From a virus (taxonomy: Duplodnaviria; Heunggongvirae; Uroviricota; Caudoviricetes): a DNA stretch of 8,881 nt. Every line of letters begins with the position of its first letter. Within the stretch, counting starts at the first letter, position 1. The position numbers are program-made. The DNA lies in IMG/VR virus record IMGVR_UViG_2529293214_000003, positions 1 to 8,881 of that record; one strand, written 5' to 3'. Below are positions 6,001 to 8,881 of this stretch, piece after piece.

Positions 6001-8881
6001 AACCCAGGTGAAACAAACATCCTGCCATCAGCAAGAATCAAGTACATACGTTCTCTGGATAGATGGAAAATCTATTGGATGCGGAAGGATATGAAATGGC
6101 ATCAGTACAGTACTGAACTTTCGCTGACTGATGCGCTTGAGCTTGTGCGTGCTGACCCGGATTGCTGCTTCTTCGGATGAGTGAAGAGACATTTGGGTGA
6201 TGGATGGTCGCAGAAGTGCGGCTTTTAATGTAATCGAAGAAAAGTAATCCTTGTAAAACTTGATTTGACTGTATTGTCACAAAGAAAGGAATCAACGATC
6301 GTTTCTTGGGTCTTGATTTGTTTTGACGATCAAATTAGTATTGCCTCATCAACTGTATGAGGCTTTTTTATGCAAACCAAAAGCTACACCATCAAAGCAT
6401 TTCAGGACTTCTTACAGATGCTTCCTGAGCTTGGTATCGTCAATGATGCTACAGCCCGCAATCTCCGTGACTCTTCCCTGCGCCTTCTTACTGTTCTTGG
6501 GTCGGATTTCACCGATGCCGATATCCGTGATTATAGCGTTGCCAACTTAGCAAGTTCGTACGCAGACTCAGCAGAAAGCAAACCCTCTGAATCATCTTTG
6601 CAGGCATACAAAAGCCGGATGCAAAGTGCTATTGATAAATTTATCTCCTACCAGAATGGTGAGATTAATGTGTCAGTTGGTGATGTAAATAAAAAAAAGG
6701 AGCGTAAAAAGATGGCACCTAAGAAGAAGGCGGTAGCTGACGTACAGGTTGGTGTAAAAACATTTGAACTGCCGATTCCATTGCGCGGAGATCTTATCGT
6801 CACCATTGGCAACCTGCCTCGCGACCTGACAAAAGATGAAGCCAAGCGTATCAGTCTGATTGTGGAATCTTTTGCGATGATTGATGGCGGAACAAAAGAA
6901 TAAAGCCCCGAGGGAACGGGGCTTTTTGGGTCGGAAATATATCCAGTATTTCCGAAGTGTATGGAGGATTACCTACCGCTACACCCTTGGCAACCGCAAG
7001 CCAAGGATAGCGGTTCTCCCAACAAACTACAACCTGTTCGGGTAAACAGGCTGTATACAAAAACAGGAGAAAAGCTATGGCTCACGATGTTAATCGCGAT
7101 GACTTCATCTACGAACACGACAAGCCGGTTTATGTGCGCAGTTACTGCCGCATACGTTTCGGTGAGCTCGAACATGTTCGTCAGCACTTCCGCTCTTATC
7201 CGAGCTGCTGAAAATAACTAAATCTCAAACCCGGCCACCGAGCCGGGTTTTCTTTGCCTTACGATCCCCCCACCTAAAAAACATAACCAATTGTATTTAT
7301 TGATGTAACTCGCTAAACCATGCAGTTATGATCCCTGCCCCATCACCTTCATCCTCAACATTTACAAAAATAAAATACCTTTGTTATCCATTATTTATAA
7401 CTTATTTACCATGAATTATAAATTAAGTTATTGACCACACCTATAACCTGGGTTATCTTTAAGCCATCAGCAGGACGCTGGTAGCCAAACGGAACAGATT
7501 GGCAGGCTCTTTAACTTCGATGTGGCGCTGACAAAGCGCAAACAGATACCAAACGAGATGGGTTTGGCGGTGATGTGAATTGCAGCAGCAACGACAGCAA
7601 CCAGAAGATCAGCATCTGGCGCATCACCACCAAAGCCATTTCACATGAGGAAAATATCATGACGGTAATCGTGTACGGGAAATCAACATTCGCAGGAAAT
7701 GCCAAAACTCGCCGTCATGAGCGGCGCAGAAAGCTGGCTATCGAGCGTGATTCCATCTGCAACATCATCGATTCGATCTTCGGCACAGACAGTGAGGAAG
7801 CTGTTCAGGAAGCCCCGAGAAAGCGTTTAAGCCTTTCTGAAAAAGCAATATCACTCGGAAGCCTTCGCTGCAAGAAGTCAAAGTCAGAAGAGGTCGAGCG
7901 TAAACAGAACCGTATTTACTACCGCAAGCCACGCAGTGAAATGGGTGTGACTTGTGTTGGTCGCCAGAAAATGAAATTAGGCAGCAAACCACTTATTTGA
8001 GAGGAATTAATATGTCATCAATCCGCTTAACTACGAGAATGAAAGAGGAAATCGCTCGTAACGCTTTAATTAAGTCCGGGGTGTTCACTGAACTTGAAGA
8101 AGTAACAAAGTTAAAGAACCAGCTTGCACTTGACGCCAGAGTTATTGCGTTTGGCGGTAAAAAGAAAACTGAGGAAGTGGATCAGTTATCATCCAAGTTG
8201 GTAGCTATAAGTGAAGAACTTGGAAAGATGGGATGTTCATTTTACTCATACGATGTTAGTTCTACTTCAATTTATCTGACTGTATCTGGCAGAAGGGTTG
8301 GATGGCATTCATATGGGAAAGACGGCAACGGCAAAGATATATTGCTCCCTACTCCGATCAAAGATAAATGCATGTTTGACGCAGAACACGAAATAACAAA
8401 AAGGTTTGATGAAATCTGCGCATTGCAACAAAAACTTGAAGCCAAGAAAAAGGATATCGAATCAAATGTATGGGCTGCTTTGAACTCAGTCACAACAGTT
8501 AAGCGACTTATTGAAGTTTGGCCTGAAAGCAAAGAATTGCTACCAAAAGAAGCAGATAAAGCAAGTACAGCACTTCCTGCTTTACGGGTAGAAGATTTGA
8601 ATAAGATGATTGGACTTCCTTCCGAGGCCGCATAGTCGGCCTTTATTTTTGGCATAAACAACAGAATAAATACTGCACTGTGTATTCATTCCAACGAGTG
8701 AATACACGGAGCAATGTCGCTCGTAACTAAACAGGAGCCGACTTGTTCTGATTATTGGAAATCTTCTTTGCCCTCCAGTGTGAGGGCCTTTTTATATGCA
8801 TACCAATAACGCTTCACTCGAGGCGTTTTTCGTTATGTATAAATAAGGAGCACACCATGCAATATGCCATTGCAGGGTGGC

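Follow-up and report, generated by a model that had tools for sequence, protein, structure and literature searches.

As judged from its sequence, the spacer upstream of cIII in this stretch of DNA very probably represents the PreS (LPR1) module that a lambdoid prophage carries in its early-left (pL) operon. Within the window, by which we mean the whole stretch of 8,881 nucleotides analysed, positions 8709–8787 are 100% identical to nt 1–79 of the 88-nt lambda LPR1/PreS (79/79 in an alignment to lambda 34011–33924), and this identity includes the entire seed, the positions mutated in M1 and M2, and the terminator stem. After nt 79 follows a divergent tail of 6–8 nt, CTTTTT here vs GATTTTTT in lambda. 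A sequence-only reading had previously considered a small RNA, a regulatory palindrome or a degraded gene for this spacer. The first of these has been borne out, with 8709 to ~8794 corresponding to lambda LPR1/PreS and ending at the first of the two terminators named in that reading. Besides, the two findings whose absence it would have held against itself, namely a transcript ending at 8795 and a conserved palindrome, both exist, at least for lambda.

PreS in lambda and in the window

PreS was first described in 2024 by Silverman et al. (bioRxiv 10.1101/2024.10.31.621285; according to reference lists, later published as Mol Cell 2025;85:4678). In lambda, LPR1, renamed PreS, is an Hfq-enriched sRNA located between ral and ea10, whose 3′ end was equated with the terminator tL2a and which appears on northern blots as a band of ~88 nt and a stronger one of ~68 nt (Silverman et al. 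2024). Lysogens lack it, whereas in the lytic cycle it is present from 10 min after induction (Silverman et al. 2024). PreS activates dnaN translation by opening the ribosome-binding site, as reflected in the activation of dnaN-gfp and its rescue by compensatory mutations, and raises host DNA-clamp production, which aids phage replication; it also represses alaS, and full deletion of PreS results in ~4-fold fewer phage (Silverman et al. 2024). Even phage lambda, that is, carries a trans-acting sRNA that reprograms host replication.

The ends of the window copy were taken from the cloning and in-vitro-transcription primers of that study (Table S5 of the preprint), which set the cloned lambda RNA as GAGCAATGTCGCTCG...GAGGGCGATTTTTTA, lambda 34011–33924 (Silverman et al. 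2024); the 5′ end at 8709 rests on this cloning choice, and the size of ~88 nt is only a rough value. These authors recognise PreS by an identity to lambda LPR1 of at least 92% with at most 3 gaps, a range within which the copy falls. It also lies where PreS is expected, i.e. on the sense strand of the pL operon, between an N-proximal accessory gene and ea10/cIII. With a covariance model of the family (see below), the window scores 129.9 bits. By analogy with lambda, we infer that PreS would be expressed in the present prophage as well.

A search for known sRNA families with covariance models, as the sequence-only reading had advised, returned no Rfam sRNA match: only the truncated cIII element was matched when the whole window was scanned at gathering thresholds and 8500–8881 more permissively (E up to 10). 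PreS, which is spread over Stx-type and other lambdoid prophages, is annotated neither in Rfam 15, where it has no model, nor in RefSeq, where nothing stands between the genes flanking it among the records listed. We thus regard the element as real, but as a member of an already published family, to which the present analysis adds small new details. Another sRNA from an EHEC prophage, HnrS, is described as a 66-nt stationary-phase RNA targeting hha, and is thus probably a different RNA.

Genomic context and origin of the transcript

The features that place PreS in its operon are as follows:
5064–5801, cI-like S24 repressor (Pfam)
7575–8000, + strand, N antiterminator (Pfam N_peptide)
7952–8635, + strand, open reading frame of the Nmad5 gene (Pfam)
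8709–8794, + strand, PreS (LPR1) small RNA, very probably, from its identity to lambda LPR1 nt 1–79
8844–8881, + strand, cIII translation-initiation region and first codons (ATG at 8857), cut short by the window end

The + strand follows the direction of the early-left (pL) operon, as indicated by the probable start of the cIII translation-initiation element that Rfam matches at 8844–8881, and shows the order N, Nmad5 gene, spacer and cIII of a lambdoid, Stx-type prophage. That match (Lambda_thermo, 47.7 bits, E 2.4e-10, model positions 1–38 of 59; below the gathering score of 50 bits) loses its 3′ end at the end of the window, and CIII is annotated in RefSeq at the corresponding place in matching genomes. 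On the opposite strand lie a Cro-like gene, an O-like replication gene and an intein-bearing DnaB helicase. Among database records, the best matches come from Stx-converting phages and from Shiga-toxin-producing E. coli prophages. Relative to phage lambda, the ral–ea10 spacer is fused directly to the ea10–cIII spacer and, like HK97, the window lacks the 369-nt ea10 gene.

A promoter scan found no sigma-70-like promoter in 8300–8881, which fits an origin of PreS from the pL transcript. Alternatively, PreS could be the primary transcript of a promoter of its own that overlaps the palindrome described below, given that the cloned 5′ end lies 1 nt past this palindrome and that some operon-internal sRNAs have internal promoters. 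However, besides the lack of a promoter-like site in 8300–8881, the region that would have to hold the −10 and −35 elements is swapped among five unrelated sequences, and the lambda RNA, absent in lysogens, appears no later than 10 min after induction, in line with control by pL. An own promoter is therefore quite unlikely. Promoter hexamers picked by eye, TTGGCA together with TACTGC or TAAATA, had the wrong spacing or a poor −10 and are absent from HK97-type flanks.

The hairpin 5′ of PreS

The palindrome noticed in the sequence-only reading, a 9-bp perfect inverted repeat at 8680–8707, is present as GTGTATTCA (8680–8688) and TGAATACAC (8699–8707) with a 10-nt loop. Inverted repeats that are perfect over at least 9 bp (loop 3–12) occur 4 times in the window vs 0.42 expected from dinucleotide shuffles. 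The palindrome lies outside the cloned sRNA, ending 1 nt before the PreS 5′ end, and forms the core of a larger structure:
8674–8713, + strand, 5′-flanking hairpin, consisting of the palindrome core, an inward UUC/GAG extension and a lower stem

Folded as RNA, the palindrome is predicted to form a stem of ~12–13 bp plus a 4-bp lower stem (dG −21.8 kcal/mol, z −7.4, 0/200 shuffles as good). In the lower stem, GCAC (8675–8678) pairs with GAGC (8709–8712), that is, with PreS nt 1–4, around an A×A mismatch, and the cloned 5′ end is thus inside the extended helix.

Annotated phages, supplemented by two pattern scans of viral contigs, gave 137 distinct homologues in a MAFFT alignment. In these relatives, where conservation of the palindrome had been proposed as a check, five unrelated stems keep the hairpin in the same register, each ending 1–2 nt before GAGCAAT:
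stem type 1, GTGTATTCA/TGAATACAC, present in the window
stem type 2, ATAGCAGA/TCTGCTAT
stem type 3, AATGACCA/TGGTCATT
stem type 4, AATGCGGA/TCCGCATT
stem type 5, TATCGACT/AGTCGATA

Sub-variants of these stems exist, e.g. ATAGCTGA/TCAGCTAT, and the upstream GCAC is invariant before every stem type, with rare variants changing to U·G. In the helix of the 5′ hairpin, 96.9% of cells are paired, 9 of the 15 pairs change on both sides, and 265 G·U cells are found vs 4 A·C cells. When this helix and the hairpin at 8730–8747 (see below) are taken together, 388 cells covary vs 103 in shuffles and pairing falls from 95.7% to 29–44% once the partners are slid, with the caveat that the five hairpin types may go back to a few module swaps, in which case the cell counts overstate the number of independent events. 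Covariation is almost absent from the lower stem GCAC/GAGC, which scarcely varies and competes with a small hairpin, GAGC-N6-GCTC.

These observations bear on the question whether the palindrome is a DNA site, i.e. the operator of a dimeric protein or a cruciform, rather than an RNA hairpin. In favour of a DNA site, the 9-bp inverted repeat is perfect, a palindrome has its symmetry in the DNA itself, and IS903 has inserted into this one in HK022. Yet a shared DNA-binding protein would not tolerate five unrelated stems in the same register next to an invariant flank. Moreover, with G·U common and A·C almost absent, the helix holds for the + strand transcript only, and rare variants go to wobble pairs, not to mismatches. 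LexA, CRP and ArgR boxes, compared by eye, did not fit the palindrome. Thus, a DNA site appears very unlikely, and of the regulatory palindrome suggested earlier, conservation stands, as an RNA structure, whereas a DNA operator conflicts with the five stems and the G·U pairs specific to the + strand.

As there is no predicted promoter and the sequence at the promoter position is not conserved, we infer from the alignment that the RNA hairpin is a processing or boundary hairpin, which would mark or create the 5′ end of PreS. Cleavage of the stem by an RNase III-type activity would be the most likely route to this end. The predicted geometry is compatible with an RNase III site, in that the putative 5′ end falls inside the extended helix, yet the stem is short for a classical substrate. 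If the flanking hairpin were a processing signal, this would explain how an sRNA is carved from an antiterminated operon. The preprint discusses neither the palindrome nor 5′-end biogenesis, and the full deletion made by its authors retains the palindrome (primer P969) (Silverman et al. 2024).

Seed region and internal hairpin

Two further elements lie within PreS:
8730–8747, + strand, internal PreS hairpin AACAGG-AGCCGA-CTTGTT, identified by covariation
8742–8769, + strand, PreS seed (target-pairing) region, located by mapping the published mutations

The published seed deletion maps to 8744–8760, M1 to 8748–8750 and M2 to 8758–8760 (Silverman et al. 2024). For the duplex between the seed and the E. 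coli dnaA-3′/dnaN leader, a dG of −28.3 kcal/mol is predicted (z −7.3, 0/500 shuffles as good). Folding of the whole sRNA against its target was uninformative owing to over-extension and was replaced by seed-only duplexes. The internal hairpin covaries between the body types, as pair 66–80 is AU in 82 rows of the alignment and GC in 55, and pair 67–79 is GU, AU or GC. A long hairpin in the PreS 5′ domain, obtained as the minimum-free-energy fold, shows no covariation and is broken in 55–67 rows (P22-type), and the local hairpin at 8730–8747 is therefore preferred.

Distribution and a wider family

The block is 95–100% identical in 326 phage records, and the element is found in 2256 of 5426 complete E. 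coli genomes (42%), with up to 6 copies per genome. Of 80 viral cIII loci, 77 have it upstream of cIII on the + strand according to the family covariance model, the remaining three having <450 nt of upstream sequence (the scan of viral contigs with cIII retained only lambda-identical cIII loci and is useful for linkage, not for distant relatives). In six cIII loci the model match ends ~60 nt before cIII, which is the spacing expected without ea10, as in the window. A scan of genome contigs with cIII added no diversity, the hits being nearly all contigs of contaminating phage lambda DNA in unrelated genomes.

The same architecture is found upstream of gene 17 or cIII in P22, L, MG40 and other P22-like phages, with a body ~83% identical over the core. 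In these P22-type variants the seed has diverged as well, yet ~30 nt remain complementary to the E. coli dnaA-3′/dnaN leader. The seeds of all four body types are complementary to this same site, with predicted duplexes of −27 to −33 kcal/mol (z −4.6 to −7.3) and no shuffle as good, the target being the E. coli leader only. PreS copies are reported in the preprint only at identities of at least 92% (Silverman et al. 2024). Sequence comparison thus suggests a modest extension of the family beyond that report, to P22-like Salmonella and E. coli phages, and the diverged variants would offer a natural experiment on the seed positions that are important for dnaN control. Neither these variants nor the interchangeable 5′ hairpin appears in the preprint, and both may be new.

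Terminators around PreS

A terminator consensus scan yielded 3 sites in 8300–8881 vs 0.4 expected, all of them within 210 nt:
8624–8650, + strand, terminator-like hairpin and T-run directly after the Nmad5 stop (stem 8624–8643, 7 pairs, tail TATTTTT, dG −11 kcal/mol)
8770–8793, + strand, intrinsic terminator tL2a, PreS 3′ end and Hfq-binding module (GCCCTC-N6-GAGGGC at 8770–8787, then CTTTTT to 8793)
8808–8837, + strand, second intrinsic terminator, upstream of cIII (AACGC...GCGTT at 8808–8827, then a T-run; dG −10.3, z −3.3)

The scan recovered both terminators of the sequence-only reading, placed there at 8770–8795 and about 8808–8832, while the site at 8624–8650, the first of the three in tandem, lies just outside the range then considered (8651–8856). 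In phage mEp234, the site homologous to 8624–8650 is annotated as a rho-independent terminator. As 8709–8787 corresponds to PreS with its 3′ end at tL2a, this terminator is the sRNA's own. The PreS U-tail reads C-UUUUU-A here vs GA-UUUUUU-A in lambda, i.e. five U vs six at a different spacing, which could alter termination or Hfq binding. N-modified polymerase should read through tL2a, so that 3′-end formation in the lytic cycle is unexplained by the sequence. The second terminator (8808–8837) is homologous to the lambda ea10–cIII hairpin and is likewise conserved in front of cIII in HK97 and P22-like phages. The lambda hairpin just upstream of cIII is probably the tL2b of the lambda literature (Luk and Szybalski 1983; Lambda II map). 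Because ea10 is absent, tL2a and the cIII-proximal terminator are only 20 nt apart in the window, and this arrangement of PreS may affect read-through into cIII and kil.

Might the spacer then hold only tandem terminators (the tL2 cluster) within a mosaic ‘boundary sequence’ that insulates cIII, kil and gam from unmodified transcription and promotes recombination between phages, with no functional RNA? The three terminator-like sites within 210 nt would suit such a role, as would a left homology edge that varies between phages (query positions 1–3, 29–30 and 40–41), the label ‘boundary sequence 4’ that GenBank EF120458 gives to the palindrome sequence, and recombinants with crossovers inside the element, e.g. 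611R6 and mEp043. However, the identical lambda sequence gives rise to a discrete Hfq-bound sRNA with a mutant phenotype, and complementarity of the seed to dnaN is kept in diverged variants, which a pure terminator or linker would not need. Nor do the two roles exclude each other, with tL2a being the sRNA's own terminator. We thus consider it highly improbable that terminators and linker are all there is, and retain PreS as the identity of the segment.

The 31-codon reading frame

A possible ATG preceded by a GGAG at about 2 nt had also been pointed out; the spacing and the length of 31 codons are correct, but the ATG is found at 8714, not at 8718:
8714–8809, + strand, 31-codon open reading frame, judged not a gene (GGAG 8708–8711, ATG 8714–8716, Shine-Dalgarno spacing 2 nt)

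Of the 137 distinct homologues, 70 have ATG at the putative start and 67 have ATA, and indels in the hairpin-3 loop and in the spacer shift the frame between variants. As the frame runs through the terminator hairpin, its C-terminus differs between lambda and the window, and the lambda version, read by eye, has 29 codons and a different C-terminus. In light of this comparison, the frame appears accidental and does not qualify as a small-protein gene, and the degraded gene of the sequence-only reading is dropped along with it. That the frame codes for a small protein, either by itself or within a dual-function RNA, deserves next to no credence despite its ATG, upstream GGAG and 31 open codons, given the 2-nt Shine-Dalgarno spacing, the ATA start in 67/137 homologues, the frame-shifting indels and a C-terminus that differs from lambda.

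Proposed mode of action

The mechanism of PreS was established by others, in lambda, and for the present prophage we propose the following course. After induction, transcription from pL would run via N and the Nmad5 gene into the spacer. There, the hairpin 5′ of PreS would be cut by an endonuclease in the polycistronic transcript, giving rise to the PreS 5′ end, and the stem-loop left after cleavage may also cap the upstream mRNA. The resulting RNA of ~86 nt (8709 to ~8794) would end at tL2a and, by analogy with lambda LPR1-S (~68 nt), might be trimmed to a form of ~66–68 nt starting near 8729. The GC hairpin, the U-tail and the preceding A/U-rich stretch would bind Hfq, and the unpaired seed at 8742–8769 would pair with the end of dnaA and the dnaN leader. 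The dnaN ribosome-binding site would thereby open, leading to more beta-clamp and favouring phage DNA replication, and the same RNA would repress alaS. The second hairpin (8808–8837) could serve as a back-up terminator before cIII, kil and gam.

Taken jointly, the proposal that a hairpin with interchangeable stems sequesters PreS nt 1–4 and releases PreS from the N-antiterminated pL transcript, in a family that extends to P22-like phages, is tentative, and we lean somewhat against its holding in every part.

Comparison with known systems

Phage lambda has the same layout as the present stretch, with N, an accessory gene, the PreS element and then cIII, but the gene upstream of PreS is ral in lambda and Nmad5 here. 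The lambda tL2 cluster comprises the same two hairpins with T-runs at homologous positions; however, ea10 stands between the terminators in lambda, whereas here the extra terminator at 8624–8650 precedes them. HK97 resembles the window in that the cIII-proximal terminator comes directly after PreS.

DicF of prophage Qin, to which the sequence-only reading had likened the spacer, is cut out of a polycistronic transcript by RNases. The likeness holds as a concept, in that DicF and PreS are both Hfq-dependent sRNAs within an early prophage operon. It does not extend to the sequence, structure or family, and the targets differ as well, being ftsZ and others for DicF vs dnaN and alaS for PreS. The DicF Rfam model gave no match at the gathering threshold in the whole window or at E up to 10 in 8500–8881.

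Finally, the 5′ hairpin, and it alone, resembles the RNase III hairpins of T7 early genes (e.g. R1.1), the hairpin being intercistronic in both cases. In both, cleavage on the 3′ side of the hairpin would leave the stem-loop on the upstream RNA and give rise to the 5′ end of the downstream RNA. The stem here is shorter than in T7, and RNase III cleavage is a proposal on our part.

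Natural variation in the PreS element and its surroundings

The seed of the small RNA PreS (window 8742-8769) is complementary to the dnaA-3'/dnaN leader of E. coli in two or three blocks that together span ∼30 nt, and this complementarity is kept by four diverged seed variants, each in a different manner. In phage HK022, an IS903 insertion (144-1200 of the sampled locus) lies within the left arm of the palindrome, so that the 5' hairpin is lost while the PreS body is still intact. Two further phages are natural recombinants with a junction inside the PreS element: vB_EcoP-611R6 carries a P22-type spacer and terminator downstream of a lambda-type hairpin and seed start, and mEp043 a lambda-type body downstream of a P22-type hairpin.

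Between tL2a, the terminator at the 3' end of PreS, and the cIII-proximal terminator, ea10 (encoding a DUF2528 protein) constitutes a clean presence/absence polymorphism (window 8788-8807 versus ∼430-930 in the lambda locus). Lambda and most Stx phages carry ea10, whereas the window lacks it, like HK97; among the 77 sampled viral loci with a lambda-type cIII and a PreS-type element upstream, ea10 is probably missing from six. By eye, we also spotted that the second terminator is flanked by ATAACG (8804-8809) and CGTTAT (8831-8836). Judged from their sequence, pairing of these motifs could form a candidate alternative, larger hairpin directly 5' of the cIII ribosome-binding site.

When genome contigs were scanned, a cIII 100% identical to that of lambda was found on L254-L270, contigs in assemblies of unrelated organisms, including Pseudoxanthomonas, Enterococcus, Shewanella, Kitasatospora and Segatella. 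Several of these contigs match the lambda genome in length (∼48.4-48.5 kb), and the set looks like contaminating lambda control DNA.

Further features of the window

Elsewhere in the window, the following features were recorded:

720-3113, minus strand: DnaB-like replicative helicase, 797 aa
6902-6925: perfect inverted repeat of at least 9 bp
6931-6955: perfect inverted repeat of at least 9 bp
7227-7250: perfect inverted repeat of at least 9 bp
7952-8635, plus strand: Nmad5-family gene (nucleotide modification associated domain 5), Pfam E-value 4e-71

The helicase is split at residues ∼393-454 by a LAGLIDADG homing-endonuclease domain and is therefore probably intein-containing. Two of the three inverted repeats, which come in addition to the 8680-8707 palindrome, have GC-rich stems with A/T runs alongside (AAAGCCCCG... 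and AAACCCGGC...); these two are probably terminators that end the repressor operon, upstream of pL. The 3'-terminal part of the N ORF is shared with the Nmad5 ORF, which occupies the place at which lambda instead carries ral.
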